Source of the DNA: Candidatus Spongiisociaceae bacterium
Lineage (GTDB): Bacteria; Actinomycetota; Acidimicrobiia; Spongiisociales; Spongiisociaceae
Direction: 5' to 3'
Assembly: GCA_965219685.1 (NCBI GenBank)
Contig: CBDCOH010000002.1
Span: forward strand, 4,192,001-4,256,000
DNA length: 64,000 bases
Shown piece by piece: positions 524 to 39,236 of the stretch (position 1 is the stretch's first letter; the number at the start of each line of letters is the position of its first letter). Under the pieces are notes generated by a model. The model was not told the origin of the DNA. It saw nothing but the letters and a program-made list of their open reading frames with translations, and made no database searches. The translations under genes were made by a program, and so were the position numbers.

Positions 524-790
524 TTTACAGTAATTTCATATAGATTGCCTATGATCTCATGACTATCTTATGCTGACGTTTGTCGGGTAGCAGAGTTTCG
601 AGCATGATTTGGATCAAGGCCGGTGCGGGTCCGGTGTGAGTATGGATTGGGCCAGCGGGTTCCGGCGGAGGAGGGTCCCCGGAAGCGGACAAGTGGGGCA
701 GCCCGGCATCCTCCAGAGATTCACCGGGACCTCGCAGGCGTCACATCTGGCTCAGGCCGACGGGCCACTGGAGAGGCAGAGATCCGGGAA
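524..790 (+). promoter_or_regulatory. Conserved promoter/leader element, copy A
   Basis: TTTACA-N5-TTCATA-N13-ATCTCA-N5-ATCTTA-N9-TTGTCG(580)-N17-CATGAT(603), then a conserved leader to ATG 791. Confidence 0.75.
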
Positions 791-3700
791 ATGGGCGAGC
801 AGTATCGGGCTTCTAGACGGGATGACAAAGCGACGTGCTCGGTGACTGTTCTTCGGGTTGTGGCGGTCGCGGCGGTGATCTCCGCGGCGGCGGTCGCCGC
901 GACGGCGCAGAGCGGGACTGTGCCCGATGCGCCGCAGGGGCTTGCGATCTCCGCGGTCTCCCATGATTCGGTGACGCTGTCATGGACCGATCCGGGGGAC
1001 TCTTCCATCACGGGGTACCAGGTTCTTCGCCGCAACCGCGCGGTGCAAGCTGCGGGTGTGTTCGAGATCATCGATGACGCGGTGCCCGCCAACGCCACCA
1101 GCTACACCGATATGCCTGTTGAGGCATCGACCCGGTACGCGTACCGGATCAAGGCCCGCAACGCGCATGGGCTCAGTGGGTGGTCAGCGTGGGTCCGGGC
1201 GGACGTCCCCGAGCCCGCTCCCGAGCCCGACCCGTCCGTGACAGAGGCTACCGTACGAGACTCTGTTCTGCGCCAGGTCGCGGCTGCTCCGGTGATCACG
1301 AGTCTGGGCCCGTTCGCGGTGGATGAGGGCACGACTGCGGTGGTGACGCTCACCGCTTCTGATGACGACACCGCGGTTGGTGATCTGGTGTGGTCCAAGG
1401 CGGGGGGCGCGGATGCCGACGTGTTCACGTTGAGTTCATCGGGTGTGTTGTCGTTCGGTTCGGCCAAGGACTTCGAGGATCCTGACGATGACGACGCCGA
1501 CGGCGCCTATGAGGTGACGGTGCAGGTCAGCGACGGCGACAACAAGGTGACCGCTGCGGTGTTGGTGTCGTTGGTGAACATCGTTGAGTTGACCGCGATC
1601 GATGGGCCCACGGCTGTGACCTTCGAGGAGAACAGCTGGCTGCGGGTGGCGGAGTTCACGGCGTCCTCATCGCAGGACCGCGATGGGGTCTCTTGGACTT
1701 TGGGGGGCGCTGACTCGTCTCATTTGAGGATCGATGAGCCTGCGGGGGTGCTGCGGTTTGATCTTGATGCGGTGTCGCCGTCTGTGGTGTCGAAGCCCCC
1801 GGACTTCGAGGCGCCGGTGGATGCCGGCGCCGACAACGCGTATGTGGTGACGCTCACGGCCAGGGTGGGATCCGACACCGGCACGCCTTTGAGCGTGACG
1901 GTGACGGTGTCTGATGTTGACGAGCCCGGCACGGTGTCGCTGTCGACGAAGCGGCCCCGCACCGGCGTGGCGGTCACCGCGACGCTCGCTGATCCCGACG
2001 AGGTCACCAGCGGGTCGGAGACGTGGGTTTGGGAGCGCAGCGGCGCCTACGACGAGTGGATCGAGATCGCGGGTGCGACCGCCTCCAGCTACACGCCGGT
2101 CGCGGCCGACGCGGGCAATTTCCTGCGGGCCAGCGTCACCTACAGCGACCGCCACGGCAGCGGCGCGTCGGCCCAGGCCACCGCGCCCGAGGTGGTGGCC
2201 GCGGACCAGTTGAACGCGTTGGCGGTACGCACCAACGACTCTGCCGCGTCCTCGGACACGGAGCCGTGGCGGTTGATGCGGCCGTTGTTCGACGCGGCCA
2301 CGCTGCACTACTCGGTGGGCTGTGGCAGCCCTGACTTGATGACGCTCAGGTTCAGCCCCGCCGACGGGTCGAGCCGGATCTCGGTCGACGGCGTCCAGCA
2401 CGCCAACCCCGGCGCGGGCAACTCGACCACGGCGACGGTCTTGGTAACCGGCGACAGCGTCGTGGACGTCGTGCTGGCCGGCGCCGACGGCGCATACACC
2501 CGGTACGCCGTGCACTGCCTCGCCGAGAGCATCCGCGAGATCACACTCACGAAACCCCTCGGAGAAGCCGAGGTCCTCGACGAGCTGATGCTCTTCTTCA
2601 TCACACCGCACCTGGTGATCGTCGACAGCAACGGCGTCCCGCGCTTCCAGCGCCATCCGATCGCCTCCGCGGGGCCCTACTTCCGGTTCTATCCCGACGT
2701 CAACGGCGAGCCGCGCTACTCCCACAACGAGCCCGGCCGGGACTTCGTCATCCTGGACGGCAACTTAGACCGAGTCGACTCACCCCACACAGTCGCGCCC
2801 CTGACCCGTCACGACAACCACGACTTCCGGGTGCTCGACAACGGCGACTACATGCTGATGGCCTACCAGGACACCGAACGCGACCTCTCCCATCTGACCT
2901 TCACCGACAGGAACGGCGACCCCTTCGGGACCGACGTGTACGTCGAGGACTCTGTCATCCAGATCGTCACCCCCGGTGGCCGGGCGACGTTCAACTGGAA
3001 CTCGTGGGACCATATGCCGCTGGAGGACTGCGCGCAGCACTTCTTCCCGCCCGGCCGCGGCAGCTGGGCACATGTGAATGCCATCCAGTACGTGGACGAT
3101 GTGATCGTCGCGTCAATGCGGGGCTGCTCGCGGGTGCTGGCGATTGACGTCGACACCGGTGATGTGGTGTGGAGGGTGGGTCCCTCCAATCTCAGCACCG
3201 CCGAGTGGGCCGAGCGCGGCATCGGACCGCCGCCGCTGGACATCATCGGCGACCCGGCGGGCCAGTTCTGCGGACAGCACGGGTCGACGCTGCTGCCCGA
3301 CGGCAACCTGATCCTCTACGACAACGGCGTGGTGTGCACGATCGATCCCTGGACGGGTGAGACTCTTGTCCGGACGAACGAGGAGTACAGCCGCGCCGTC
3401 GAGTACGCTCTCGATCTCGACAACGGCGAGGCGGTGTTCGTGCGCGACCACTCGCTGCACGGCACCGAGTCCGAGGTTGGCTACCGGGGCGGGCACGTCG
3501 AGGCGCTGAGCAACGGCCATTGGCTCATCAGCTGGGGCAACAAGCATCCAACGCGCGACGATCCCCCGGAGCCGTCCGATGTATTGACCCAGGTCGACCC
3601 GGACACCGGCCAGGAGTGGCTCTCGGTGGACGGGCTCAGACGCGGGACTCGGGCCACCGTCATGCGGCCTGAACAGTTGTTGAGGGCCCGCCCGGCGCTG

Positions 3701-6700
3701 GAGGCCCGTTTTGTGGACAGCACCTACACGTCGGTGTTCCACACCGGTGCAGGGGACGCCCCTACGGTGGTGGTGGCGTTCAACCGTCCGGTGGCGGACT
3801 TCGCGGCGTCGTCTGCTTCGCTGAGTGTTCGGGGCGCGTCGGTGACCAGCGTGGCGCCCCATGTGGTGGCCGGGGAGCCCGCCAACGCGTACCTGGTGAC
3901 CCTGGCTCCCGACGGGCCCGGCGCCATCACGGTGAGGGTTGTTGCCGGCAAGGCGTGCGATGCCGGCGGGGTCTGTACTGCGGACGGAGCCGAGGTGGAG
4001 ACGGTTCCTGAGGCCTGGGTGATCAGCCCGCCGATCAGCGTGTCCTTCGGGGCCGGTTCCTATTCGGTGCGTGAGGGCGCCGCGCTGTCGGTGCCGGTGG
4101 TGTTGAGCGGAGCCCACGGCAGCCCAAGTCCCATAGACGTGCTGTTGGTCGCGTCGGCGGTGAGCGCCTCTGCGGACGACTTCTCGGTGCCGTCCAGTGT
4201 GAGCTTCGCGGCGGGCGAGACCCGCAAGTCGGTGTCCTTCGATGCGGCCGACGACGAGGTGGTGGAGGGCGCCGAGACGGTCGAGTTGAGCCTCGTCGCG
4301 CTGCCGACGGGTCTGATGGCTGGTTCGAACCAGACGACGACGATCACCGTCGCCGATGCCGACACGGCTGCGATCAGATTCGACGCTGCGGTCAGCGAGG
4401 TTGCTGAAGGGGGCCAGGTCGAGTTGACGTTCGCCATCACCAACGGTGTCGTCTTCGCAGCCGATCAGTCCATCAGCATCGAGGTCTCCGGGTCGGCGAC
4501 AGCCGGCGACGACTACGAACTGGTGGGCTCGCGGGGCCAGACGCTGTCGGCGCCGTACTCGGTGACGCTGGCGGCGGGAACGAACTCGCTCACGGCCACA
4601 TTGAGGGCGTTGGACGACTCCGATGCCGAACTGGCCGAGACAGTGTCGCTGAGCGCCCGGCTCGTCTCCACCGGCGCGCTGATCGGAGCGCGCACGGTGA
4701 CCGTCAGTCCCAGCGACCTGGACGCTCCCGAGGTCGAGATCGCCCAGGACGGTGCGGTGACCGAGGGCACCGAAGCGGTGTTCACCCTGACGCGCACCGG
4801 GACCGCCGGCAGCCCGCTGAGCGAGCCGCTCACCGTGCGGGTGCAGGTGACGGCCGCCGGCGGGGTCCTGCAGGGTGTGCCGCCGTCGACAGTGACCTTC
4901 GCCGGCGGCGCCAACACCGCCGAGCTGCGGGCCGCGACCGCCGATGACGACATCGTCGGCGACACAGTCACGGTCACCGCGCTGGTGCTGGCAGACAGAG
5001 CCAACCCTCCGGCGTACCTGACCGGCCCGTCCAATCACGCGACGGTTACCGTGCAAGACGACGACGCTGCAAGTTTCGCGGTGTCCGCATCCGCCAGCAC
5101 CATCGTCGAGGGCACCGACACGACGGTCACGATCGACACCGGCGGAACCACCTTCGCACAGGCCCAGACCATCAGCATCATCGTCGGCGGCAACGCAACC
5201 GCAGGCGACGACTTCGTGTTGACCGACACCGGCGGGCACCAGATCCAGGCGCCGTATGAGCTGGTGCTCGCGGCCGGCGCCGCGTCCACGAGCCTGACCG
5301 TCGCAGCCGCAACCGACGAGGCCAACGACAGCGGCGAGACGGTGGTGCTGTCGTTCCGCCACGACGGGAACTCCATCGGGACGGTCACCATCACCGTGGA
5401 CGACGTCAACCAGCGACCGGTGGTGGCCGGCGGCCGCTCGTTCTGGTACGCGGAGAACGACACAGCGACCGTGGCCGAGTTCACCGCGACCGACGCCGAG
5501 GATGACACGATCACATGGTCTCTCGGCGGCGCCGACGGCTCCCTGTTCACCATCGCCGGCGGCGAGTTGCGGTTCTTGGCGCCTCCGGATTTCGAGACGC
5601 CCGCAGACGCCGGCGCCGACAACTTCTATGACATCGTCGTGGAGGCTTCCGACGCCGGCGGCACGGCGGGCCGCGACGTGACCGTGACCGTCACCAACAT
5701 CGACGAAACCGCGACCATCACCAGCGACTCGGGCTCCTTCGCCATCAGCTACCCCGAGAACGCGGCCACCGATGTGGCTTCCTTCACCGCCGACGATCCC
5801 GAGAGCGCCAGGATCAGGTGGTCGCTCGGCGGCGACGACCGCGACGACTTCGAGATCGACGACGGTGGCGTGCTCAGCTTCTCGAGTCCGCCCGACCATG
5901 AACGCCCCGACGACGACAACGAAGACAACCAGTACCGGTTACAGGTCCAGGCCAGAGCAGGCGCGAGCGCCCCGGTGGCCGAGGCGGTGACCGTCAGCGT
6001 GAGCAATGTGGAAGAGCCCGGGGTCGTGCGTCTGTCGTCCCTGAGGCCCCAGGCGGCCACCGCTCTGACCGCTTCGCTCAGCGACGACGACGGCGTGTTG
6101 GCGGTACTGTCATGGACCTGGCAGCGCTCCCTGGCCGGTGGACCCTGGACAGATACCGGCAACGCCGCCACCTACACGCCAGCGGACGCCGACGTGGGCT
6201 ATGACCTACGGGTCGAGGCCACCTACCGAGACGGCGCCGGTTCGGGCACCGACAGCGCCAGCGCACACGCCGAGCACCCGGTGCGGGCCGCGCCGCTCAC
6301 CAACAGCCCGCCCACCTTCACCGGCGACGCCGCCGAACGCTCCATCGTGGAGAACTCACCCGCAGGCACACCCGTCGGCACAGCCGTCGCAGCCACCGAT
6401 CCCGACCCCGACGACCGCAACAAGCTCACCTACAGCATCTCAGGCACCGACGCCGATCTGTTCAGCATCGACGGAGCCACCGGACAGATCCGCGTCGGGT
6501 CGGGGACAGTGCTCGACTACGAGACCACCACAGGCCCCTACTCGGTCACCGTCACCGTCGCCGACCCCTCAGGCGACACCGACGACCAGCCCGTCACCAT
6601 CGAGGTGACCGACATCAACGAAGCACCCGAAGCGCAACACGACACCGCCACCACCTCCGAGGACACGCCCTTAAACATCACAGTGCTCTCCAACGACACC

Positions 6701-8443
6701 GACCCCGACGGCGACGCCCTCACGGTGACACGGCGTGACGCGCCCCTCAACGGCCGCGTCACGGTGCATGCCGACAACACCGTCACCTACACACCCCGCC
6801 CCGACTTCAACGGCGAGGACATTTTCACCTACGCCGCCTCCGACGGACGCCTCACCCACGAGGCAACCGTTACGGTGACGGTGACCGCGGTCAACGACCA
6901 GCCCCAGTTCTCTTCGGCATCCACCACCCGCAGCATCGCCGAAGGATCCCCTGCCGGGACGGCGGTCGGAGCTCCGGTGCAGGCCACCGACATCGACCGG
7001 GAACCCCTCACCTACAGCCTTTTCGCAGAGGACTCGCAGTCCTTCGCCATCGACCTCCACACCGGCCAGATCAGAGTCGCCGCAGGCGCTGTGATCGACC
7101 ACGCCCAGCAGCCCACCTACCGGCTCAGAGTCCAAGCAACCGACCCCCACAGCGCCAGAGCAAGCACCGCCGTCACCATCACCGTCACCACCGGAGGCGG
7201 AAGCGGACGAGGAACAAGCGGCGGCGGTGGCGGTGGAGGTGGTGGAGGTGGTGGTGGTGCAGGTGGTGGTGGTGGCCCGGTTCAAGACATCGGTGTGCCG
7301 GTGTTTGTGGAAGGGTCAACGGGTGTCCGTTCGGTGGCTGAGAACAGTGCGGCTGGGACCAGCATCGGTGACCCCCTCATGGCGGTGGATCCGGAGGGAG
7401 ACCCACTCACCTACACGCTTTCAGGAACCAACGCAGACCTTTTCGACCTCGACGCATCAACAGGTCAACTACTAACCAAAGCCGCCCTCGACTACGAAAC
7501 CAAAAACAGCTACACCGTCACCGTCGACGTGGGAGACAACAAGAACCCCGACGGTGAACCCGGCCAACAACGCGACGACTCCATCCGAGTAACCATCCTC
7601 GTCACCAACCAAGACGACCCCGGGACGCTCACCCCCTCCGTACCCACCCCACGAGTCGACCAACCCTTCCACATCGCATTAACAGATCCCGACGGCGGCG
7701 TCACCGACCTCGCCTGGAGATGGGACCGCTCCCCCGATCGGAACAGGTGGACACCAATCACCAGCGCAACGTCGGCCGCATACACCCCGACCGCAGACGA
7801 CCAAGGCCAACACCTGCGGGTAACCGCCACCTACACCGACGACTTCGGAGCAAACAAGGCAACAACACTCGAGCCCAATGCAGTTACCACCGGTTTCCGA
7901 ACCGGGTTCGAAGACCTATCAGCCGACAGCGTGCACACCCCCGCCATCCAAGCCCTAGCCAAACAAGGCGTGTTCGCCGACTCCGAATGCGGCCAAAGTG
8001 GTTTCTGCCCACACGAACCCATGCAACGATGGGTGATGGCAGTCTGGATGATCCGACTCCTCACCGAAGAACCCCCACCGGTGGTGGGCACCTCCCGCTT
8101 CGGTGACATAGCCGACGGACAATGGTGGATCCGCTACGTCGAACAACTAGCAGACCGCCGCATCACCATCGGATGCGACACCAACCCACCCCGATACTGC
8201 CCCAACAGTTCCGTAACCCGAGCGCAGATGGCCACCTTCCTGGCACGCGCCCTCCAACTCCAACCCGCAGCCCGCGCCGGGTTCGCCGACACCGAAGGCA
8301 ACACCCACGCCGCCAACATCGACGCGCTATTCGCCGCAGGGATCACCGTCGGATGCGACACCGACCCGCTGCGGTACTGCCCCGACCAGCCAGTAACCCG
8401 AGCACAGATGGCCACCTTCCTACACCGAGCCCTCAACCCCTAA
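791..8443 (+). CDS. Giant secreted surface protein: signal peptide, Fn3, cadherin repeats, arylsulfotransferase-like domain, Calx-beta repeats, Ig-like, Gly linker, 3 SLH
   Basis: ORF 623..8443, with the start moved to ATG 791 (MGEQYRA) by alignment with paralogous leaders. ASST motifs HDFRVL, HVNAIQY..SMRG and QHG..LYDNG; cadherin DFE/LDYE motifs; C-terminal CP...VTRAQMATFL repeats. Confidence 0.85.
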   Translation: MGEQYRASRRDDKATCSVTVLRVVAVAAVISAAAVAATAQSGTVPDAPQGLAISAVSHDSVTLSWTDPGDSSITGYQVLRRNRAVQAAGVFEIIDDAVPANATSYTDMPVEASTRYAYRIKARNAHGLSGWSAWVRADVPEPAPEPDPSVTEATVRDSVLRQVAAAPVITSLGPFAVDEGTTAVVTLTASDDDTAVGDLVWSKAGGADADVFTLSSSGVLSFGSAKDFEDPDDDDADGAYEVTVQVSDGDNKVTAAVLVSLVNIVELTAIDGPTAVTFEENSWLRVAEFTASSSQDRDGVSWTLGGADSSHLRIDEPAGVLRFDLDAVSPSVVSKPPDFEAPVDAGADNAYVVTLTARVGSDTGTPLSVTVTVSDVDEPGTVSLSTKRPRTGVAVTATLADPDEVTSGSETWVWERSGAYDEWIEIAGATASSYTPVAADAGNFLRASVTYSDRHGSGASAQATAPEVVAADQLNALAVRTNDSAASSDTEPWRLMRPLFDAATLHYSVGCGSPDLMTLRFSPADGSSRISVDGVQHANPGAGNSTTATVLVTGDSVVDVVLAGADGAYTRYAVHCLAESIREITLTKPLGEAEVLDELMLFFITPHLVIVDSNGVPRFQRHPIASAGPYFRFYPDVNGEPRYSHNEPGRDFVILDGNLDRVDSPHTVAPLTRHDNHDFRVLDNGDYMLMAYQDTERDLSHLTFTDRNGDPFGTDVYVEDSVIQIVTPGGRATFNWNSWDHMPLEDCAQHFFPPGRGSWAHVNAIQYVDDVIVASMRGCSRVLAIDVDTGDVVWRVGPSNLSTAEWAERGIGPPPLDIIGDPAGQFCGQHGSTLLPDGNLILYDNGVVCTIDPWTGETLVRTNEEYSRAVEYALDLDNGEAVFVRDHSLHGTESEVGYRGGHVEALSNGHWLISWGNKHPTRDDPPEPSDVLTQVDPDTGQEWLSVDGLRRGTRATVMRPEQLLRARPALEARFVDSTYTSVFHTGAGDAPTVVVAFNRPVADFAASSASLSVRGASVTSVAPHVVAGEPANAYLVTLAPDGPGAITVRVVAGKACDAGGVCTADGAEVETVPEAWVISPPISVSFGAGSYSVREGAALSVPVVLSGAHGSPSPIDVLLVASAVSASADDFSVPSSVSFAAGETRKSVSFDAADDEVVEGAETVELSLVALPTGLMAGSNQTTTITVADADTAAIRFDAAVSEVAEGGQVELTFAITNGVVFAADQSISIEVSGSATAGDDYELVGSRGQTLSAPYSVTLAAGTNSLTATLRALDDSDAELAETVSLSARLVSTGALIGARTVTVSPSDLDAPEVEIAQDGAVTEGTEAVFTLTRTGTAGSPLSEPLTVRVQVTAAGGVLQGVPPSTVTFAGGANTAELRAATADDDIVGDTVTVTALVLADRANPPAYLTGPSNHATVTVQDDDAASFAVSASASTIVEGTDTTVTIDTGGTTFAQAQTISIIVGGNATAGDDFVLTDTGGHQIQAPYELVLAAGAASTSLTVAAATDEANDSGETVVLSFRHDGNSIGTVTITVDDVNQRPVVAGGRSFWYAENDTATVAEFTATDAEDDTITWSLGGADGSLFTIAGGELRFLAPPDFETPADAGADNFYDIVVEASDAGGTAGRDVTVTVTNIDETATITSDSGSFAISYPENAATDVASFTADDPESARIRWSLGGDDRDDFEIDDGGVLSFSSPPDHERPDDDNEDNQYRLQVQARAGASAPVAEAVTVSVSNVEEPGVVRLSSLRPQAATALTASLSDDDGVLAVLSWTWQRSLAGGPWTDTGNAATYTPADADVGYDLRVEATYRDGAGSGTDSASAHAEHPVRAAPLTNSPPTFTGDAAERSIVENSPAGTPVGTAVAATDPDPDDRNKLTYSISGTDADLFSIDGATGQIRVGSGTVLDYETTTGPYSVTVTVADPSGDTDDQPVTIEVTDINEAPEAQHDTATTSEDTPLNITVLSNDTDPDGDALTVTRRDAPLNGRVTVHADNTVTYTPRPDFNGEDIFTYAASDGRLTHEATVTVTVTAVNDQPQFSSASTTRSIAEGSPAGTAVGAPVQATDIDREPLTYSLFAEDSQSFAIDLHTGQIRVAAGAVIDHAQQPTYRLRVQATDPHSARASTAVTITVTTGGGSGRGTSGGGGGGGGGGGGGAGGGGGPVQDIGVPVFVEGSTGVRSVAENSAAGTSIGDPLMAVDPEGDPLTYTLSGTNADLFDLDASTGQLLTKAALDYETKNSYTVTVDVGDNKNPDGEPGQQRDDSIRVTILVTNQDDPGTLTPSVPTPRVDQPFHIALTDPDGGVTDLAWRWDRSPDRNRWTPITSATSAAYTPTADDQGQHLRVTATYTDDFGANKATTLEPNAVTTGFRTGFEDLSADSVHTPAIQALAKQGVFADSECGQSGFCPHEPMQRWVMAVWMIRLLTEEPPPVVGTSRFGDIADGQWWIRYVEQLADRRITIGCDTNPPRYCPNSSVTRAQMATFLARALQLQPAARAGFADTEGNTHAANIDALFAAGITVGCDTDPLRYCPDQPVTRAQMATFLHRALNP

Positions 8444-8993: not shown

Positions 8994-9044
8994 ACTCCGG
9001 CCATTTCCCCGTAGTGGGGGTAATCGCGGCAGCTTAGCCCAGAG

Positions 9045-9260
9045 GTTACATTGCTCTTATATAAATGGCCCAAGATTTTACGGCTATCTCATATCCGGGT
9101 TTGACAGTAGCTGGGGGGTCTCGGAGCATTGGGACTGTTCTCGATGCCGGTGCGGGTGGGATGAAGACGAACAGGATTCCTGATATAGAGAGTCCCGGTA
9201 GAACCCGCGGGCGGTCCATATCTCAACAGTCTCCGCGATCGGCCCGGGACCTCTCCTCGG
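9045..9260 (+). promoter_or_regulatory. Conserved promoter/leader element, copy B (diverged)
   Basis: GTTACA-N5-CTTATA-N13-ATTTTA-N5-ATCTCA-N9-TTGACA(9101), with a downstream CCGGTGCGGGT block. The -10 is unclear. Confidence 0.65.
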
Positions 9261-16108: not shown

Positions 16109-16327
16109 CGCGAACCGAACCTGACATGTTTGTATCGACGGCATCGTCCGTCTCCCGAACCGAGAACCACTAACACTGGAACCCGCTCACACCCACCCAA
16201 GACAACTCGGCGCTTTGTTCCACCAAAGCGTCCACCGAAGCGGGCCAACCGCAACTAGTTCTCGACGCTTTGGTATGGCCGTGATCACTAGCAGTGTTCG
16301 ACCGGGTGGTCCTCCACACGTGGCAGC

Positions 16328-22563: not shown

Positions 22564-22625
22564 TTTATAGCCATTTGATATAGATTGCCAGTTACCTCAT
22601 GGTTATCTTACATTAACGCTTGTTC
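22564..22625 (+). promoter_or_regulatory. Conserved element, copy E (boxes and -35 only)
   Basis: TTTATA-N5-TTGATA-N13-ACCTCA-N5-ATCTTA-N9-TTGTTC. It overlaps the 3' end of 22603..25593 and lies upstream of the regulator gene. Confidence 0.7.
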
Positions 22626-25593: not shown

Positions 25594-25734
25594 ACTCTCG
25601 GACCTCTGTCTCTCCCGTGGCCGGTTGCTCCGTGCCACATGTGGTGTCGGCGGTATTCGGGGCGTCCCATTCTATCTAAGGTAGTATTAGTTATTCATGA
25701 GATCTTGCATCTAGTAGTATTAGATTACTATGAA
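25594..25734 (-). promoter_or_regulatory. Conserved element, copy F (internally deleted/degenerate)
   Basis: TTCATA-N5-CTAATA-N14-ATCTCA, plus the 3' block ACCGGCCACGGGAGAG..GAGT-ATGGGCAAG. Confidence 0.55.
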
Positions 25735-26104: not shown

Positions 26105-26367
26105 TTTATAGAAATTTGATATCAGTAGCTCATTATCTTATGACAATCTTACGCTAACGCTTGTGGCATAGGCGGTTTTCGAGCATCATTTGGATTGAGG
26201 TCCGTGCGGGTATGGAACAAGGCCAGCCCGGTTCCCAGTGAAGGAGTGGCCGGAGACCCCTACAGGTGGTGGCAGCCCTGCGGCCTCAGCGATCAGCCGG
26301 GACTTGGTCGGTGCCGCATTCTGGTGCAAGTCGACCGGCCACGGGAGAGGCAAGAGATCCCGGGAGT
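26105..26367 (+). promoter_or_regulatory. Conserved promoter/leader element, copy G
   Basis: TTTATA-N5-TTGATA-N13-ATCTTA-N5-ATCTTA-N9-TTGTGG-N17-CATCAT, then the leader to ATG 26368. Confidence 0.8.
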
Positions 26368-32300: not shown

Positions 32301-32790
32301 CGAGGTGTGGAAGCACCTCCGAAGGTTCCAGGCATCCGACTCCCAGACCGCTCTCAGCTACCGGGTCGTGCCCGTCAACTACCTCTCCAAACTCTTCGGC
32401 GGCTATTGCAGCAACTCCGGCGCCACCAACGAGGCCAGGAACAAGGGCACCCCCACCGAGGGTCGCAACCCCTGGGCCAACGACGGCTGCCCGCTCACCA
32501 ACACCGGCTCCATCGCCCTCACGTCCGGGGCGAGCTACATAGAGGTGGACTGGGACAACACGAGATCCATCAACACAGACTTCGTCGACGAGATCCAGAT
32601 CCAGTGGAAATCGTCAGGCCAGGAGTACTCGGACGTAGCTGCTGAAGGCCGCAACACCGCAGTCACCCAGAGCCAGCTCCCGTATCGCATCACGACGACC
32701 GCCGGAACGCAACTGTCCGTCCGCATCCGCCTGGTAAGCGGCGACAACACCAGCCCCTGGGTCGAAGGCCAAGCCACTGCAGGCTCGTAA
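26368..32790 (+). CDS. SLH-anchored protein with Gly linker, ~15 Fn3 repeats and a C-terminal putative zinc metallopeptidase (HExxH) domain
   Basis: Three SLH repeats; ~97-aa Fn3 repeats (ITGLDNG.EY.VQV); FIHELAHVY with a downstream HELMAD. Confidence 0.85.
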   Translation: MGKQRRVRLAANKEREALNGAEQEGISSGAVPVPRLGYGYVLPSLLVVLLGAAVLAAAAQEATPFPDVPPDAYYAEPVSTLAAVGVFVGTECDEGFCPEEDIDRVTVAVWAVRVLDGADPPRVASTRFGDVAGTHPFAAFVERLAVLGVTQGCGDGSDFCPDRTVTRAQMAAFLARAFGLAAGPDPGFSDVPSGAWYAASVARLAASGITKGCGDGTMFCPDRAVTRAQMATFLARALEFANERSGGGEGSGGGGSGGGGGGGSGGGGGGGGSTLSQRQVQAPGAPQSVVMAVRGDTTLEVLWDSPHSDGGDSNLSYVVQRRPGALGIWSSTRVTVTPSESGTGHRAEMEGLVNGVTYQIRVAARNSGGTGSFVVVEGQPVGTRAPGDPTSLSVRAGRNQLSVSWRAPSDRGGYASVTYEVQYRVADTGGWTTFATDETGTSVTITGLDNGVEYQVRVAARNPVLSSRYVEGTGTPTGSGPSVPRFVSVTAEFERLSVSWQEPEDPGGYDLSLLSYSVLYRESGGGAWTTFASDETGISVTITGLDNGVEYQVQVAARNPAGSSGSITRAGTPVGNLPGAPTIDTVTAGNRSLEVEWSAPSNTGGYADSFLTYSVQYRKGSSGSFTTFASGVTGTSVTITGLDNGDEYEVQVEAVNPAGASGYTTSARGTPVGIAPGKPGSVSLIAGNGSLRVDWQKPSTGGYADSFLTYSVQYRKGSSGSFTTFASGVTGTSVTITGLDNGDEYEVQVEAVNPAGASGYTTSARGTPVGTKPEAPTGVSVTAGRNQMSVSWTAPSVTGGYNASDLTYSVQYRKGSTGGWTTFASAETATSVTITGLDNGYEYQVQIAARNPGNFVSTYSDPESATPVGDAPDKPTNVSVTVGKNRLSVSWNAPSGTGGYASSFLTYTVEFREGSTGQWSTDGVNVSGRSATITGLDNGVEYEVQVEAVNPAGGSGFTDPQSGTPRGDRPGTPTIDGVRAGNGSLEVSWTAPTDTGDYASSFLAYVVQYRKGSSGSFTTYASDETGTSVTITGLDNGDEYQVQVATKNPAGTSGYVTATETPVGTAPDAPTIDTVRAGNGSLEVSWTAPTDTGDYASSFLAYVVQYRKGSSGSFTTYASDETGTSVTITGLDNGDEYQVQVATKNPAGTSGFDTATGTPVGTMPGKPGSLSAQARNAALLVSWAAPSNLGGYDASFLTYSVQYREGSSGSFTTFASDETGTSVTITGLDNGTEYEVQVEAKNPAGSSGYTTPVKGTPVGTEPSAVRNPAVTSDGDGELDVSWDAPDDHGGYSTLTYVVERRKAAGNRSWSDAGVTISGTTATITGLDVGEEYDVQVAATNGAGTGPYEELSGTPEGSLPGAPGNLMVTAGSRQLSLSWDAADDGGYDSVSYVVEYRTGTDEWSVFAESNSTDTAAVITGLVNGTSYDVRVAATNVRGRGPDTASTGTPVGTVPGAPRHVAARPGHESLEITWSVPASTGGYGAATLTYTVEFKESGSTDDWSDTGVTVTGTAAEITGLTNDTAYQVRVGASNAAGTGTQYGTVTATPAKSFKPRDVVVTGGGRSLVVTWSAPAAPAGEITTYDIRYRQDGTDTWTTVSSVTSPHTISSLMANTSYDVQVGTNDTSANPTVWSDTVTRSTRAAPGRPWGLKSQAQLTETKLHIRWSIPTSGVITGYKIQWRRDGDDWDPSRRQTTKRYPTSPANVLDAEINVGSAKDNDGDGTEWQIRIMAYNNGGDSEPIEIDYTQLHTVAEYNAWAEDNIIEPLEEDWPWLRAVWDFLDSRPGANLKVANTSSYQGRTRLNLIRDPRAANDNLPVSTLTDVSMRKALRREDPEHLSAFIHELAHVYAQTTDIADWIDDVALIGMVYLYVNEEYENSPFDAECVAHELMADMIQYVVMKDADADAENGDLSSLFNLPASAHQYLEYWLLCNHVGSSPTSDDETFIRSVLEGDIPDWFTDTYGGSSSDIYTRDYDGDAAEVWKHLRRFQASDSQTALSYRVVPVNYLSKLFGGYCSNSGATNEARNKGTPTEGRNPWANDGCPLTNTGSIALTSGASYIEVDWDNTRSINTDFVDEIQIQWKSSGQEYSDVAAEGRNTAVTQSQLPYRITTTAGTQLSVRIRLVSGDNTSPWVEGQATAGS
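28186..28678 (+). repeat. Identical ~202-bp direct repeat pair (28186-28387 / 28477-28678, 291-bp period)
   Basis: Direct comparison by eye. Confidence 0.85.
29299..29821 (+). repeat. Identical ~232-bp direct repeat pair (29299-29530 / 29590-29821, 291-bp period)
   Basis: Direct comparison by eye. Confidence 0.85.
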
Positions 32791-33060: not shown

Positions 33061-36024
33061 TCATGGACTCCAGCGCACTCCTTCCGGAGCGCGGGGCCAG
33101 CAGGTGATCGTGTCGTCGGTTGCGATGGCGCAGGTGTGTCTTTTGTAGGCCGTGATGGCTTTGTAGGTGCCCGGGATCGAGTCGGGAATGTCGCCATCGA
33201 CGCCTCCCCAGCAGGAGACGGTGTCGTCGTCGGCGATGGCGCAGCTGTGGGTCGATCCGGCTGCGACGGCTTTGTACGTGCCGGCGGGCGCGTCGGCCTG
33301 GCCGTCGTTGTTCTTTCCCCAGCAGGTGATGGTGTCGTCGTCGGCGATGGCGCAGCTGTGGTACCCGCCGACTGTGACGGCCTTGTAGGTGCCGGTGGGC
33401 GCTTTGGCCTGGCGGTTGTTGTTCTTTCCCCAGCAGGAGACGGTGTCGTCGGTTGCGATTGCGCACGTGTGATGCAGACCGGGTGTGACGGTCTTGTAGG
33501 TGCCCGCGGGCACGTTGGACTGTCCGAAGCCCCAGCAGGTGACCGTGTCGTCGATCGTTGTGGCGCAGGTGTGGTGCGTGCCGGCTGTGACGGCCTTGTA
33601 GGTGCCGGTGGGCGCGTCGGTCCGGCCGTAGAGGGCGCTTCCCCAGCAGGTCATGGTGTCGTCGGCGGTGATGGCGCAGGTGTGGTCGTCGCCCGATGAG
33701 AGCGCCCGATGCGCGCCTGCGGGCGCGTCGGTCTGCCCGTAGTAATTGGCTCCCCAGCAGTCGATGGTGTCGTCGGATGTGATGGCACAGCTGTGGTCCC
33801 AGCCGACTGCGACAGATTTGTAGGTGCCTGCGGGCGCGTCGGTCTGCCCGAAGTTGTTGTACCCCCAGCAGGTGATGGTGTCGTCGTCGGCGATGGCGCA
33901 GCTGTGATACTCGCCGAGTGCGACGGTCTTGTGGGTACCGGCCGGGGCCTCTGCGGGCCCGTTGTAGTTCTCTCCCCAGCAGGTGACGGAGTCGTCGGTG
34001 GCGATGGCGCAACTGTGACTCTCGCCGGAGACGACCGCCTTGTAGGTGCCTGCGGGCGGATCGGTCTGCCCGAAGTCGTTGGCTCCCCAGCAGTCGATGT
34101 TGTCGTCGGTCCTGATGGCGCACACGTGGTTGGTGCCGGTGTCGACCGCCTTGTAGGTGCCGGCGGGCGCGTCGGTCTGACCGTCGTAGTTCATTCCCCA
34201 GCACGCGAGGGTATCGTCGGTCTTGATGGCGCACTTGTGCTGGGACATGGACGCGAACATCTTGAATGTTCCGGCCGGCGCGTCGGACTGTCCGAAGCGG
34301 GTTGGCCCCCAGCAGTTGAGGGTGTCGTCGAACGCGACGGCGCAGGCGCTGTAGCTGCCGGCGTCGATGGCCTTGTAGGTGCCCGTCGGCGCGTCGATCC
34401 TTCCATGGATGCTGTTTCCCCAGCAGGCGACGGTGCCGTCAGTCCTGAGGGCACACGCATGCTCCCAGCCGTGGGTGACGGCCTTGAACGTTCCCTCGGG
34501 CGGGTCGGCCTGGCCGAAGGCGTTGGCGCCCCAGCAAGCCAGGGTGTCGTCGGTCTTGATGGCGCATGAGGAGTGGTCGTCCGCCGACTCGACCAGCTTG
34601 AAGGTGCCGGTCGGCACCTCGAGCTGGCCGTACTGGTTGTCCCCCCAGCAGGAGATGTTGCCGTCGATGCGCAGGCCGCACACGTGGATGCGGCCGACGA
34701 CGACAGACTGGAAGGCGCCGGCCGGCGTGTCGGTCTGCCCGGAGATGTTCCTGCCCCAGCAGGTGATGGCGCCGTCATAGCGCAGGCCGCACGTCTCGTA
34801 CTTGTTGGCGGAGAGTGATTTGAATCCTTTGTTGTTGGTTGTTTGGTGGTGGCCAGGCATGTTGTGGCGGGCGAGGTGGGATTGGGTGTTGGTGGTGACC
34901 CACATCGAGGCGCCGTTGGACCAGATGCCCCATGGTTTGTCGGTGCCGGTGTCTGCGAGGGTGTTGATGTCTCTTTCTGTGGTGCGGGCGCCGTTGGAGA
35001 GCCGGTAGGCGTAGATCTTGTCGTCGCGGTCGTCGGCCACCCAGAGGGTGGTGCCGTCGGACCAGAATCCCCTGGGGTGGTTGTTGCCGGCGGCGTCGAG
35101 GGTGTCGATGTCTTTGCCCTGGACGCGGGCGCCGTTGGAGAGCCGGTAGGCGTAGATCTTGTCGTCTTCGTCGTCGGCGATCCAGAGGGTGGTTCCGTTG
35201 GACCAGATGCCCATGGGCTTGGTGTTGCCTGCGGCTTCGAGGGTGATGATCACCTTGGACGCGTCGCGGGCGCCGTCGGCGAGGCCGTAGGCGTATACCC
35301 AGTTGTCGCGGCCGTCGGCGACCCAGAGGGTGGTTCCGTCGGACCACATGCCTCGGGGGGTGGTGTTGCCTGCGGCTTCGAGGGTGATGATCACCTTGGA
35401 CGCGTCGCGGGCGCCGTCGGCGAGGCTGTAGGCGTACACCTTGTCCTCGCCGTTGTCGGCGATCCAGATGGTGGTGCCGTCGGACCAGATGCCGCGGCTG
35501 GCGCTGTTGTCCTCGTCCAACGATGCTGTCGTCCACTCAACCGCCGAGACATCCTCTTCGGTCTCCACGGGCTCTTCCGGCTCCTGCGACGGTGGAGCCG
35601 CCGGAGTGTTGGCGCGAACGAACCCCGACTGCGGGCTGAGCCCGTGCGCGTTGCGGGCCTTGACCCGGTACACGTACCGGGTCGACGCCTCAACAGTCGT
35701 GTCGGTGTAACCGGTGGCATCAGCGGCCACGGCGTCATCGATGATCTCGAACGCGCCTGCGGCCTGCACGGCGCGGTTGCGACGAAGAACCTGATAACCC
35801 GTGATGGAGGAGTCCCCCGGATCGTTCCACGACAGCGTCACCGAGTCATGTGACACAGCGGTAACGGCAAGCCCCTGTGGCGTATCGGGCACGTTCCCGC
35901 TCTGCGCCGCCGCGGCGGCGACCACCGCCAAGGAGACCACCGCCGCGCACACCACCGCGTACTGCAGCCTTCTACGACGACCCCCCGCACGGCCTTCTGG
36001 GGCGAGCCTCAGCTCTTGGACCAC
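33061..36024 (-). CDS. Secreted Fn3 + beta-propeller (GIWSDGTT repeats) + RCC1-like repeat protein (987 aa)
   Basis: GTG 36024 lies 7 nt after GAAGGAG. Signal peptide, shared Fn3 and ~36-aa H.CAI..DDT..CWG.N..GQ repeats. Confidence 0.85.
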   Translation of the reverse strand: MVQELRLAPEGRAGGRRRRLQYAVVCAAVVSLAVVAAAAAQSGNVPDTPQGLAVTAVSHDSVTLSWNDPGDSSITGYQVLRRNRAVQAAGAFEIIDDAVAADATGYTDTTVEASTRYVYRVKARNAHGLSPQSGFVRANTPAAPPSQEPEEPVETEEDVSAVEWTTASLDEDNSASRGIWSDGTTIWIADNGEDKVYAYSLADGARDASKVIITLEAAGNTTPRGMWSDGTTLWVADGRDNWVYAYGLADGARDASKVIITLEAAGNTKPMGIWSNGTTLWIADDEDDKIYAYRLSNGARVQGKDIDTLDAAGNNHPRGFWSDGTTLWVADDRDDKIYAYRLSNGARTTERDINTLADTGTDKPWGIWSNGASMWVTTNTQSHLARHNMPGHHQTTNNKGFKSLSANKYETCGLRYDGAITCWGRNISGQTDTPAGAFQSVVVGRIHVCGLRIDGNISCWGDNQYGQLEVPTGTFKLVESADDHSSCAIKTDDTLACWGANAFGQADPPEGTFKAVTHGWEHACALRTDGTVACWGNSIHGRIDAPTGTYKAIDAGSYSACAVAFDDTLNCWGPTRFGQSDAPAGTFKMFASMSQHKCAIKTDDTLACWGMNYDGQTDAPAGTYKAVDTGTNHVCAIRTDDNIDCWGANDFGQTDPPAGTYKAVVSGESHSCAIATDDSVTCWGENYNGPAEAPAGTHKTVALGEYHSCAIADDDTITCWGYNNFGQTDAPAGTYKSVAVGWDHSCAITSDDTIDCWGANYYGQTDAPAGAHRALSSGDDHTCAITADDTMTCWGSALYGRTDAPTGTYKAVTAGTHHTCATTIDDTVTCWGFGQSNVPAGTYKTVTPGLHHTCAIATDDTVSCWGKNNNRQAKAPTGTYKAVTVGGYHSCAIADDDTITCWGKNNDGQADAPAGTYKAVAAGSTHSCAIADDDTVSCWGGVDGDIPDSIPGTYKAITAYKRHTCAIATDDTITCWPRAPEGVRWSP

Positions 36025-38975
36025 CAGTTCACTCCTTCGGGAGTGCGCGGCCAGCAGTTGATGGTGTCGTCGGTTGCGATGGCGCAGGTGTGTCTCTTGT
36101 GGGCCGTTATGGCTCTGTAGGTGCCGGGGATCGAGTCGGGGTTGTCGCCATCCTTGCCTCCCCAGCAGTTGATGGCGCCGTCGGTGGCGATGGCGCAGGA
36201 GTGGATCCGGCCCAGCGCGAGGGCCTTGTAGGTGCCGGTGGGCGCGCTGGTCTGCCCGTGGTCGTTTTGTCCCCAGCAGGAGACGGTGTCGTCGGTTGCG
36301 ATGGCGCAGGAGTGGTGCCCGCCGGCTGCGAGCGTCTTGTAGGTGCCGGTGGGCGCTCTGGTCTGGCGATAGTTGTTTCGTCCCCAGCAGTTGATGGTGT
36401 CGTCGGTGGCGATGGCGCAGGTGTGGTACCGGCCCAGCGCGAGGGCCTTGTAGGTGCCGGTGGGCGCGTTGGTCTGGCCATGGTCGTTTTGTCCCCAGCA
36501 GTTGATGGTGTCGTCGGTGGCGATAGCGCAGGAGTGGTTTTGGCGAAGCGCGAGCGTGCTGAAGGTGCCGGTGGGCGCGTCGGTCTGCCCGGAGGTGTTG
36601 AGCCCCCAGCAGGTGATGGTGTCGTCGGCGGCGATGGCGCAGATGTGGTCGTCGCCTGATGACAGTGCCTTGTGCGTGCCTGCGGGTGTGCCGGTCTGCC
36701 CGAGGGAGTTGTCTCCCCAGCAGGCGATCGTGCCGTCGGTTGTCATGGCGCAGCTGTGAAAGAGGCCGGTTACGACGGTCTTGTGGGTGCCGGTGGGCGC
36801 GTCGGTCTGTCCGAGGTCGTTCAGTCCCTGGCAGGTGATCGTGTCGTCGGCCCCTATGGCGCAGCTGTGATACTCGCCGACAGCGACGGCCTTGTGGGTG
36901 CCGGCCTGCGGCTCCGCAAGCGCGTTGTAGTTCTCTCCCCAGCAGGTGACGGAGTCGTCGGTCGCGATGGCGCAAGTGTGGTAACCGCTGGCGAGGACAG
37001 TCTTGAAGGTGCCGGCCGGCGCGTCTGAATTGCCGTAGAGGTTGGATCCCCAGCACGCCAGAGTGTCGTCGAGTGCAATCGCACAAGTGTGGGTGATGCC
37101 GCTGCTGACCGTCCTGTAGGTGCCGGCTGGCGGGTCTGACTGGCCATTGCGGTTGTCTCCCCAGCACACCAGCGTGTCGTTGGTGGCGATGGCGCACGTA
37201 TGCTCGGACCCGGTCGAGAACCTCTTGTACGTCCCGGCCGGCTCGTCGGACTGCCGGTAGCGTTGGTACCCCCAGCAGTTGAGGGTGTCGTCGAGCGCGA
37301 GCGCACAAGTGTGGACTTCGCCGGCGTCGATTGCCTTGTAGGTGCCCCTCGGCGGTTCGTCCACTCCCTGGTTGCTGTATCCCCAGCAGGCGATCTTGCC
37401 GTTGGTCCTGAGGGCGCACACGTGCTCCCAGCCGATGGTCATGGCCTTGAACGTTCCTTCAGGCGCCTCGGCCTGACCGAAGGAGTTGTATCCCCAGCAG
37501 GCCATGGTGTCGTCGGTCTTGATGGCGCACGAGGTCCGGTCGTGCGCCTCAATATCCTTGTAGGTGCCGGCCGGCGCCTCGAGCTGGAGGAAGGCGTTGT
37601 CACCCCAGCAGGCGATGGTGTCGTCGGTCTTGATGGCGCACATATGCATGCTGCTGGTGACGAATGACTTGTAGGTGCCGTCCGGTACGCCGATCTGCCC
37701 ATGGCTGTTCACCCCCCAGCAGGAGATGGTGCCGTCATAGCGCAGGCCGCAGGTGTCGTGGGCGTTGGATGAGAGTGCCTTGAAGCCTTTGTTGTTGGTT
37801 GTTTGGTGGTGGCCGGGCATGTCGTGGCGGGCGAGGTGGGATTGGGTGTTGCTGGCGACCCACATGGAGGCTTCGTTGGACCAGATGCCCCAGGGTTTGT
37901 CGGTGCCGGTGTCGTCGAGGCTGTCGATGTCCTTGTCCGGCGTGCGGGCGCCGTTGGAGAGTCGGTAGGCGTAGATCTTGTCGTCGCGGTCGTCCGCCAC
38001 CCACAGGGTGGTTCCGTCGGACCAGATGCCCCTGGGGTTGTTGTTACCCGCCGCATCCAGGGTGTCGATGTCCTTGCCGGGTGTGCGGGTGCCGTTGTCG
38101 ATCCGGTAGGCGTAGATCTTGTCGTCCTCGTCGTCGGCGATCCAGAGGGTGGTTCCGTTCGACCAGATGCCCATGGGCTTGGTGTTGCCCGCCGCTTCGA
38201 GGGTGATGATCACCTTGGACGCGTCGCGGACGCCGTCGGCGAGGCTATAGGCGTATACCCAGTTGTCGCGGCCGTCGGCGACCCAGACGGTGGTTCCGTC
38301 GGACCACACGCCCCGGGGAGTGGTGTTACCGGCGGCGGCGAGGGTGTTGATGTCTTTGGACGTGTCCCGGGTGCCGTCGGCAAGGGTGTAGGCGTAGACC
38401 TTGTCCTCGGCGTTGTCGGCCACCCATACGGTGGTGCTGTCGGACCAGATCCCACGGCTGGCGGTGTTGTCCTCGTCTAACGATGCCGTCGTCCACTCCA
38501 CCGCCGAGACGACCTCCTCGGTCTCCTCGGTCTCCTGCGGGGGTGGAGCCGCCGGAGTGTTGGCGCGAACGAACCCCGACTGCGCGCTAAGGCCCTCAGC
38601 GTTGCGGGCCTTGACCCGGTAGACGTACCGGGCCGATGCCTCAACAGTCGTGTCGGTGTAACCGGTGGCGTCAGCAGCCACCGCGTCATCGATGACGTCG
38701 AACACGCCCGCAGCGTGCACGGCGCGGTTGCGGCGAAGAACCTGATATCCCGTGATGGACGAGTCCCCCGGATCGTTCCACGACAGCGTCACCGAGTCAT
38801 GGGCCACAGCACTAACGGCAAGCCCCTGCGGCGCATCGGGCTCATCCCCCGTCTGGGCCGCCGCGGTGGCGACCACCGCCGCTGAGATCCCCGCCACCAC
38901 TGCAACAACCCGAAGAAAAGTCATCGAGCACATGGTTTGGCTGGCCGCTCTAGGAACCCGACGCTGCTTGCCCAT
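36009..38975 (-). CDS. Secreted Fn3 + beta-propeller + RCC1-like repeat protein (988 aa), tandem paralog
   Basis: Starts MGKQRRV after leader copy H and is collinear with 33061..36024. Confidence 0.9.
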   Translation of the reverse strand: MGKQRRVPRAASQTMCSMTFLRVVAVVAGISAAVVATAAAQTGDEPDAPQGLAVSAVAHDSVTLSWNDPGDSSITGYQVLRRNRAVHAAGVFDVIDDAVAADATGYTDTTVEASARYVYRVKARNAEGLSAQSGFVRANTPAAPPPQETEETEEVVSAVEWTTASLDEDNTASRGIWSDSTTVWVADNAEDKVYAYTLADGTRDTSKDINTLAAAGNTTPRGVWSDGTTVWVADGRDNWVYAYSLADGVRDASKVIITLEAAGNTKPMGIWSNGTTLWIADDEDDKIYAYRIDNGTRTPGKDIDTLDAAGNNNPRGIWSDGTTLWVADDRDDKIYAYRLSNGARTPDKDIDSLDDTGTDKPWGIWSNEASMWVASNTQSHLARHDMPGHHQTTNNKGFKALSSNAHDTCGLRYDGTISCWGVNSHGQIGVPDGTYKSFVTSSMHMCAIKTDDTIACWGDNAFLQLEAPAGTYKDIEAHDRTSCAIKTDDTMACWGYNSFGQAEAPEGTFKAMTIGWEHVCALRTNGKIACWGYSNQGVDEPPRGTYKAIDAGEVHTCALALDDTLNCWGYQRYRQSDEPAGTYKRFSTGSEHTCAIATNDTLVCWGDNRNGQSDPPAGTYRTVSSGITHTCAIALDDTLACWGSNLYGNSDAPAGTFKTVLASGYHTCAIATDDSVTCWGENYNALAEPQAGTHKAVAVGEYHSCAIGADDTITCQGLNDLGQTDAPTGTHKTVVTGLFHSCAMTTDGTIACWGDNSLGQTGTPAGTHKALSSGDDHICAIAADDTITCWGLNTSGQTDAPTGTFSTLALRQNHSCAIATDDTINCWGQNDHGQTNAPTGTYKALALGRYHTCAIATDDTINCWGRNNYRQTRAPTGTYKTLAAGGHHSCAIATDDTVSCWGQNDHGQTSAPTGTYKALALGRIHSCAIATDGAINCWGGKDGDNPDSIPGTYRAITAHKRHTCAIATDDTINCWPRTPEGVNWWSKS

Positions 38976-39236
38976 TATCCCGGACCTCTTGCCGTTCCCA
39001 TGGCCGGTCGACCTGCGCTAATTCTGGCTCCGGCGAACTCGCGGGCTGATCTCTGGACGCTGCAAGGCTGCCCTACCTGTGGGCCTTCCCTGGGCGTTTC
39101 TCCCCTGGGGACCTATTGACTTCATCCGTACCCGTACCGGCTTCGATCCGGATGGTAATCGAGATGCCGCTATCCCACAAGCGTAAGCATGAGATAGCCG
39201 TAAGATAGTTGGCTATCTATATCAAATTACTGTAAA
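38976..39236 (-). promoter_or_regulatory. Conserved promoter/leader element, copy H
   Basis: TTTACA-N5-TTGATA-N13-ATCTTA-N5-ATCTCA-N9-TTGTGG-N17-TACCAT, then the leader to ATG 38975. Confidence 0.8.

Follow-up and report, generated by a model that had tools for sequence, protein, structure and literature searches.

We analysed a window of 64,000 nucleotides (nt) from the genome of a Candidatus Spongiisociaceae bacterium (GCA_965219685.1, contig CBDCOH010000002.1, positions 4,192,001 to 4,256,000) and found that a conserved element built from four phased half-sites ("boxes") recurs through an island of surface-protein genes, among which lies a gene for a fused two-component regulator (20066..22450, reverse strand). 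A first-pass annotation of the window had listed eight copies of this element and proposed that the fused protein controls them. The reading that we favour, with a probability of roughly 65%, is that of an island-local autoregulated regulon, in which a soluble one-polypeptide two-component protein would bind two phased pairs of direct repeats and activate seven surface-protein units. Four observations carry this reading, namely the anatomy of the element, its selective conservation, its restriction to the island and its recurrence beside homologous regulators. As the same pairing of regulator and element is seen in many genomes, the fused protein probably switches the whole gene set. Coordinates are window positions unless they carry a genome or locus prefix; the genome (G000) comprises 4.42 Mb with 65% G+C.

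The element is confined to one island

The element is present at all eight positions that had been annotated, each in the annotated orientation, and copies are named here by the position at which they start. On the forward strand, copy 524 (524..608, boxes 524-570) precedes the gene 791..8443, copy 9045 (9045..9135, boxes 9045-9091) precedes 9303..13862, and copy 26105 (26105..26189, boxes 26105-26151) precedes 26368..32790. On the reverse strand, copy 19133 (19049..19133, boxes 19087-19133) lies 5' of 18859..16328 and probably also serves 16144..14261, copy 25734 (25649..25734, boxes 25687-25734) lies 5' of 25593..22603 with a short leader that leaves 141 nt between box 1 and the ATG, and copy 39236 (39152..39236, boxes 39190-39236) lies 5' of the operon formed by 38975..36009 and 36024..33061. 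These six copies are found 141-274 nt 5' of the start codons of secreted proteins with Fn3, SLH or cadherin domains, in agreement with the annotated placement of six copies directly upstream of surface-protein genes. The remaining two flank the regulator gene. Copy 19971 (19887..19971, boxes 19925-19971, reverse strand) lies 95 nt 3' of the regulator stop codon and 5' of a remnant open reading frame (ORF) at 19709..19536. Copy 22564 (22564..22627, forward strand) consists of boxes only (22564-22610), without a leader and without a gene downstream; it is oriented away from the regulator gene, starts 113-114 nt from the regulator ATG and points into the 3' end of a convergent gene.

A hidden Markov model (HMM) built from the eight copies gave nine matches in the 4.42-Mb genome, with E-values from 3.6e-15 (copy 25734) through 1.3e-22 (copy 9045) to 8.7e-33 (copy 39236). 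All nine fall within G000:C2:4191245-4231240, a stretch of about 40 kb, and the next-best match had E = 2.5. The ninth copy (G000:C2:4191246-4191356, equivalent to L001:19246-19356) lies 755 bases left of the window and is followed by transposase-like remnants, with no intact target gene. Searches of the whole genome with the HMM, a loose four-half-site pattern and a sequence-only covariance model found no copy outside the island: the loose pattern had eight genome matches, every one of them an element copy, and the covariance model, a broader one, returned the same nine copies only. Nor did the HMM, the loose pattern or the covariance model find a copy to the right of 39236. The earlier remark that none was noticed to the right of a tRNA att fragment thus holds as to the element; the att fragment itself was not confirmed, ARAGORN finding 0 tRNA genes in the window. 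SLH and Fn3 domains (45 and 77 matched stretches, respectively) are spread across the whole genome whereas the element is restricted to the island, and it is therefore not a general promoter of surface genes. No Rfam family matched the window at gathering thresholds.

Four half-sites on one helix face are selectively conserved

The half-sites are direct repeats with the core T-N-A-Y-R, boxes 3 and 4 being extended to ATCTYAYR, and every box of the nine copies carries an invariant T-N-A that points the same way. They start at alignment columns 8, 19, 41 and 52, which gives a spacing of 11-21-11 bp in eight of nine copies and of 11-22-11 bp in copy 25734. With starts 11, 21 and 11 bp apart in the T-N-A-Y-R register, all four half-sites lie on one face of the helix, as two pairs; the hexamer register of the first-pass annotation reads 11-19-11 instead. 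Its observation that seven of the eight copies have identical spacing holds, since only copy 25734 carries an extra base, between boxes 2 and 3, which brings its middle spacer to 17 nt, as in most relatives. Its consensus was upheld in part. The 47-nt four-box pattern, at three or fewer mismatches in 24 bases, matched six of the eight copies (524 and 26105 with 0 mismatches) and 0 of 100 shuffles, and missed copies 9045 and 25734, of which 9045, with more than three mismatches, is the most distant from the pattern. Extended by TTGTNG-N17-YANNAT, the consensus is exact in copies 524, 26105 and 39236 and inexact in the others.

Invariant columns fall on alternate bases (T.A.A, T.T.A.A, T.G, T.A.G and A.CT.A). 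Hexamers and spacers were compared as a refuting test set beforehand: 12 of 24 box columns are invariant, with a mean pairwise identity of 0.775, against 4 of 23 spacer columns (0.543) and 1 of 55 downstream columns (0.495). The boxes exceed the spacers (Mann-Whitney p = 0.002), the spacers show no difference from the downstream sequence (p = 0.29), and the annotated four-box comb ranks first among 61 registers. As a neutral yardstick we used the four copies whose genes share an N-terminal module. Codon position 3 of this module shows an identity of 0.464, which rises to 0.565 at codons whose amino acid is shared by all four, and the same copies gave 0.764 for boxes, 0.580 for spacers and 0.431 for downstream sequence. 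The boxes being more conserved than the spacers, the refuting condition set in the first-pass annotation did not hold, and the boxes are kept by purifying selection.

Homology among the copies does not end with the boxes: it spans a leader of about 170-190 nt with the ribosome-binding site and continues past the start codon (MGKQRRV) over the signal peptide and an N-terminal Fn3 domain, and the N-terminal modules of the targets share 57-71% protein identity. The whole 5' module has therefore been duplicated. Duplication might even suffice, in which case the AT-rich stretch would be a UP-element-like or curved-DNA part of the promoter, or a nucleoid-protein site, and would have no dedicated factor. 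The targets, as mosaics of shared modules, and the conspicuousness of AT-rich DNA in a genome of 65% G+C would suit such an origin, which we nevertheless hold to be unlikely. Conservation follows alternate bases of four phased 5-mers and not AT content, spacers and leader have drifted at the rate of codon position 3, copy 22564 retains all boxes though its leader and gene are lost, and the same comb with diverged spacers stands 5' of homologous regulators in other genomes.

Other interpretations of the conserved stretch were tried and rejected. An inverted repeat, AGATAGCC-N11-GGCTATCT, is exact by eye only in copy 39236, the other copies matching about 6/8 or worse, and was dropped because the direct-repeat comb accounts for the invariant columns. 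Reading the boxes themselves as -35 or -10 hexamers would, by inspection, require unsuitable spacings of 12 or 23 nt. For six leaders, RNAalifold returned -12.07 kcal/mol, the covariation term being +1.11 and only 4 of 26 pairs having two-sided changes, hence no convincing leader RNA structure.

A one-polypeptide candidate regulator lies among the copies

The candidate regulator comprises kinase, receiver and DNA-binding domain in a single ORF of 794 residues, with GAF (32-172), PAS (187-304), HisKA (315-382), HATPase (427-535), REC (565-674; PF00072, 9.7e-28) and Trans_reg_C (708-783; PF00486, 2.3e-17) domains, and this architecture is kept in 170 relatives. The signature residues are present (His324, the phospho-acceptor Asp613 in LLD613LMLP, the motif DDD 569-571 and Lys662). 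The protein has no hydrophobic or membrane segment, the highest 19-residue hydropathy being 1.39. For the REC and winged-helix part, solved KdpE and MtrA structures were among the best matches (E about 3e-38; E. coli KdpE 3.1e-38). It aligns to KdpE over residues 5-225 and carries R, R and T at the positions of KdpE R193, R200 and T215, residues whose role in KdpE is reported in PMC3264566.

The complete fusion that the first-pass annotation had described is thus real, and its KdpD-like character is not. The NCBIfam model for KdpD reached 132.6 bits (cut-off 1123) and that for KdpE 149.4 bits (cut-off 325), every NCBIfam model falling below its cut-off on this protein, and Pfam shows only the six domains listed above, with no KdpD, Usp or membrane domain. 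Three more full-length paralogs, 51-58% identical, are encoded at G000:C2:148021-150360, 3124517-3126874 and 2729120-2731471. Two of them adjoin giant Fn3/SLH genes, one a 6632-residue open frame at 153-169 kb and the other SLH and Fn3 genes at 3.12-3.14 Mb.

The pairing of regulator and element recurs in other genomes

A search of the species genome set found 170 homologs of the regulator, of which 80 loci with 10-kb flanks were kept; counts of the comb refer to 79 loci. By their record labels the homologs belong mostly to Dehalococcoidia and other Chloroflexota, and also to Acidobacteriota, Latescibacterota, Longimicrobiales and Spirochaetia, at 52-76% identity. On the flanks (±1.5 kb) of nine regulator homologs from relatives, the window-derived HMM gave no match better than E = 2.4; it was too specific, and a cross-genome model was therefore built. 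The window-derived model matches six homolog loci, in each case 113-180 nt 5' of the regulator gene and on the opposite strand, like copy 22564.

The loose comb pattern was found facing away from the regulator gene at 25 of 79 loci versus two in the same orientation. Among its 51 matches in 1.66 Mb, 24 start 93-155 nt from a regulator ATG on the opposite strand, and one lies at 17 nt. When strict half-sites were required, with at least three of four present, 37 of 79 loci had a comb facing away and 3 of 79 one in the same orientation, against 1 of 790 control windows, so that motif and fusion regulator recur together, the co-occurrence for which the first-pass annotation had proposed to scan. 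The distance from site to ATG is 113-116 nt in nine loci and 114 nt in the window, and the middle spacer is 17 nt in 20 of 25 relatives' sites. Since copy 22564 occupies the same position as the sites of relatives, it is likely an autoregulation site.

Among 28 other genomes of the same family, G044 alone had a match (E 7.8e-6), a copy placed back to back with an ORF at the end of a contig; this ORF shares 63% identity with the first 48 residues of the regulator. Small local regulons are found elsewhere too. Five complete records contain 7, 1, 2, 1 and 5 sites; in each of them one site stands about 110-210 nt 5' of a regulator gene and the remaining sites are no more than about 125 kb from one. 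The proteins downstream of relatives' sites include secreted ones of 958 to 2103 residues, and each of the six examined for domains is a giant protein with Fn3, cadherin, LRR or sulfatase domains. On these comparisons the triad of regulator, operator and target appears to be a widespread family.

Half-sites also vary with the regulator. Homologs of the winged-helix clade RP(V/L)RT(A/T)VKNLRRKL (the second-clade helix, RPVRTAVKNLRRKL) are accompanied by TCAC(A/G/C) half-sites in seven loci, with one exception (TCATA, box 4 of L089), and those of the clade RPMRT..S.RRKL, which includes the window, by TCATA, TTACA or TTATA. This pairing fits direct recognition of the half-sites by the winged helix.

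Promoter geometry in relatives resembles that of PhoB-activated genes

In promoters activated by PhoB, the repeats replace the -35 hexamer and the -10 follows at a fixed short distance downstream. The sites of relatives have this geometry, which is that of an activator-dependent promoter: boxes 3 and 4 occupy the -35 place, and a TANNNT hexamer (TATAGT, TAGAAT, TAAAAT and others) follows box 4 after 9 nt in 25 of 58 pattern sites and after 10 nt in five more. Four of the nine copies in the window genome have TANNNT at this -10 place, namely TAGAAT in copy 25734 and the ninth copy, TAGAGT 10 nt after box 4 in copy 19133, and TAGGGT in copy 19971. By inspection of the alignment there is no -35-like hexamer 17 nt 5' of the orthologous -10, as expected of an activator-dependent promoter.

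The first-pass annotation had instead assigned a TTGTNG hexamer as -35, which overlaps the -10 hexamer of relatives, and a CATCAT-like -10 that lies 17 nt further. In copy 524, alignment to relatives places TCGGGT at 583-588, and the earlier -35 and -10 fall at 580-585 and 603-608. Because TTGTNG aligns with the -10 region of relatives, two possible promoter readings compete, with predicted starts either at about 615 and 26195 (the earlier pair) or, about 20 nt upstream, at about 595 and 26176 (PhoB-like). In the window, a conserved GGATTGA leader block is separated from the earlier -10 by roughly as many nucleotides as lie between this block and the -10 of relatives.

If the earlier pair were the true promoter, the fused protein could bind the boxes as a repressor or as a phosphatase-controlled brake, with transcription starting from TTGTNG-N17-CANNAT and the boxes at -94 to -47. 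The distance of the GGATTGA block would accord with such an arrangement, as would the TTGTNG pair, which is exact in three copies and present in similar form in others. We regard it as very unlikely, because TANNNT stands 9-10 nt after box 4 in 30 of 58 relatives' pattern sites and aligns there column for column with the TAGAAT, TAGAGT and TAGGGT of four copies, in a PhoB-like activating geometry, and because boxes upstream of a promoter are more typical of activation.

Evidence weighed on binding by the fused protein

Several findings weigh against the proposed regulon. In five of the nine copies the hexamer at the -10 place lacks the A at position 2 (TCGGGT, TGGCAT, TGGGAT, ACAGTA and TTCGGG), a feature that would also suit repression. 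Of the 79 homolog loci, 42 have no comb or a weak one, and a broader model run under stricter filters gave no match at E ≤ 0.01 in any of the 40 nearest relatives, among them the unpublished G028 and G039. Relatives without a site include G013, G022 and G023, whose regulator homologs are 60-63% identical, and the four-box comb was not found by pattern or covariance search at the three full-length paralogs in G000, which may therefore use other operators. T-N-A is likewise invariant in the sites of relatives, these having been picked by pattern for alignment A4, so that its T and A columns are invariant by construction. The association of winged-helix clade with half-site is confounded by shared descent. 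Finally, the adjacency of regulator and site could reflect simple co-inheritance, or the site could belong to the promoter of the outward gene and be served by another factor.

Upstream of the regulator homologs in G013 (L004) and G022 (L005), which are 60-61% identical, we observed other direct repeats: TATGAGTA occurs twice with an 11-bp period in G022, and CATAAC-like repeats accompany a duplicated 5' end of the regulator gene in G013. These different repeats suggest that operators are specific to each regulator subfamily.

The loci without a clear comb also bear on whether the boxes are a real operator bound by a different OmpR/PhoB regulator encoded elsewhere, for example one of Pho type, the fused protein being a mere neighbour or having another output. 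Candidates are numerous, with 14 OmpR-type matches to the query in G000, and the site resembles the B. subtilis PHO box as set out in PMC11870197. We judge this improbable, however, given that no copy exists elsewhere in the genome, and hence none before phosphate or housekeeping genes, that distance and orientation to the start codon of the fused regulator are fixed in other genomes, and that the sites in the five other complete records are all close to a regulator gene of this kind.

Putative target genes and surroundings of the island

The putative targets encode large mosaic surface proteins. The gene 791..8443 (forward strand) specifies 2550 residues with a signal peptide and Fn3, arylsulfotransferase-like, Calx-beta, cadherin/Big_9 and SLH domains, and 9303..13862 (forward) 1519 residues with a signal peptide and Fn3, cadherin, GSDH and SLH domains. 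Two reverse-strand genes, 18859..16328 (SLH and a PD40 beta-propeller) and 16144..14261 (SLH, Big_12 and CAP), would form one operon. The reverse-strand gene 22603..25593 encodes 996 residues with a signal peptide, Fn3 and a cadherin-like domain, and 26368..32790 (forward) encodes 2140 residues with SLH repeats followed by about 15 Fn3 domains. On the reverse strand, 38975..36009 and 36024..33061 are tandem paralogs, each combining a signal peptide and Fn3 with a lactonase-like propeller and RCC1 repeats; the two genes overlap over 16 nt, and the second starts with GTG at 36024 behind a GGAG ribosome-binding site and has no element of its own. The tandem duplication unit at 33061-38975 measures about 2.95 kb. 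Elsewhere, the last 400 residues (cadherin and SLH part) of the 791-8443 and 9303-13862 products are 78.5% identical, far above the remainder, and SLH triplets are N-terminal in two targets and C-terminal in two others. The composition of these mosaics suggests recent exchange of modules.

The ORF region downstream of copy 19971 (19328-19864) looks chimeric. Its remnant (19709..19536) is homologous to the start of the SLH-protein gene at 26368 and is ended by a stop codon after 57 codons, at which a coiled-coil-like ORF of 72 codons begins; neither this ORF nor the remnant has a Pfam match.

In relatives, the leaders downstream of the four-box promoter at L025, L026 (two sites), L028, L045 and L024 contain a short conserved ORF (about 42-48 codons) behind a strong GGGAGG ribosome-binding site. 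Its consensus is roughly M.LDRPVHAPETADGTTAPAVA...HGDLAQ, and its end meets or overlaps the start of the giant gene (by ATGA in L025). In the window, most copies with the leader block retain a matching ATG, in GGGTATGGAT. A leader peptide in the window was rejected: the ORFs range from 5 to 178 codons in different frames, and because they differ in length and frame the leader is not conserved as coding sequence. The peptide may have been lost in this genome.

The left flank consists of the housekeeping genes mfd, mazG, eno (enolase) and DUF501, and the island begins directly after them. At the right end of the island lies a split IS110-family transposase (39557..40864), with DEDD_Tnp_IS110 at 40271..40864 and Transposase_20 at 39557..40267. 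Together with the transposase remnants on the left and the occurrence of copies in both orientations, this raises the idea that the copies mark the ends or targets of a mobile element, or that site-specific inversion takes place between opposed copies. We consider it highly improbable, as every copy lies at a fixed distance from a gene or, for copy 22564, from the regulator start, homology runs on into coding sequence, neither terminal inverted repeats nor a recombinase gene was seen among the proteins scanned, and overall identity among the copies is only about 60%. A foreign origin of the island by composition was tried as well and gave no clear signal, with 58-69% G+C across the window versus 65% in the genome.

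An AT-rich stretch (14325-14379) with an imperfect palindrome, GTTAACGTATAC...GTTAAC, is situated between the convergent genes whose ends are at 13862 and 14261. It has no relation to the element and may serve both strands as a terminator. Many other AT-rich intergenic stretches are tandem 7-nt repeats of the AGTGAAT and CAACTAA types (for example C2:70920-71025, 2010903-2011089 and 561142-561224), and such repeats make up a large share of the 185 AT-rich 50-nt windows in the genome.

Proposed mechanism and significance

Under the autoregulated-regulon reading, the element would be a composite of operator and promoter. The soluble regulator would sense a cytoplasmic signal through its GAF and PAS domains, autophosphorylate His324 and pass the phosphate to Asp613 within a dimer. 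A KdpE-like winged-helix domain would then occupy each half-site of a pair, head to tail, and RNA polymerase would be recruited to the -35-less promoters by PhoB-type (class II) activation, switching on seven transcription units of giant surface proteins with SLH, Fn3 and cadherin domains. Through the boxes-only copy 114 nt 5' of its own gene, the regulator could tune itself. We infer the identity of the binder, activation rather than repression, and the signal. The regulon may have grown by duplication of a 5' module (operator, leader, signal peptide and Fn3) and its joining to different sets of 3' domains.

A wider interpretation, which we offer tentatively and hold to be rather doubtful, is that regulator and four-box promoter constitute a horizontally mobile, self-contained expression switch governing giant eukaryote-like surface proteins (Fn3, cadherin, LRR, RCC1), with the promoter-leader-signal-Fn3 module as a portable cassette that recruits genes by duplication and domain shuffling. 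If true, it would be the first defined transcriptional control circuit for such proteins. Uncultured Chloroflexota and other phyla are rich in giant surface proteins with Fn3, cadherin, LRR and SLH domains, which, in the accessible parts of the literature, are often discussed as adhesion or host-interaction factors; in those parts we found nothing on their regulation. The circuit proposed here is concrete and testable, with a DNA motif, a candidate regulator without a partner protein and a small closed target set, and there are dozens of natural variants that pair a changed recognition helix with a changed half-site. So compact a sensor-to-promoter module could be moved to model hosts to find its signal.

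Comparison with known systems

The kinship to KdpE- and Pho-type direct repeats noted in the first-pass annotation agrees with published sites. According to PMC3264566, the half-sites of E. coli KdpE are the AT-rich direct repeats TTTATA and TTTACA with a 5-bp spacer, matched here by boxes 1 and 2 (TTTAYA-N5-TTSATA). The element differs in having four half-sites in two pairs instead of two half-sites. The regulator, unlike E. coli KdpE, is fused to its own kinase, with GAF-PAS in place of the KdpD/Usp/membrane module, and its targets would be surface proteins rather than a K+ pump (kdpFABC).

Of the sites compared, the B. subtilis PHO box comprises four TT(A/T/C)ACA-like repeats with 11-bp periodicity, according to PMC11870197, and the element, too, has four repeats with an 11-bp period within each pair. 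As at the pho box of E. coli PhoB, the repeats would take the place of the -35, with the -10 a short distance downstream. In contrast to the PHO box, one helical turn is skipped between the pairs (11-21-11, and 11-22-11 in most relatives), and the regulon is a local island without phosphate genes and without sites elsewhere in the genome.

Our literature searches turned up no account of a fusion of GAF, PAS, kinase, receiver and winged helix, nor of its operator. A parallel in logic is offered by the hybrid two-component systems of Bacteroides, whose output domains are of AraC type. As described in PMC11253607 and PMC13292587, these are membrane proteins with a periplasmic sensor that unite sensor kinase and DNA-binding response regulator in a single chain and govern neighbouring gene clusters. 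The regulator described here has the one-polypeptide logic in common with them, and differs in being soluble, in sensing through GAF-PAS and in ending in an OmpR/PhoB winged helix. The idea of a two-component system in one polypeptide would thereby be extended from membrane-bound AraC-type proteins to soluble proteins of the OmpR/PhoB type.

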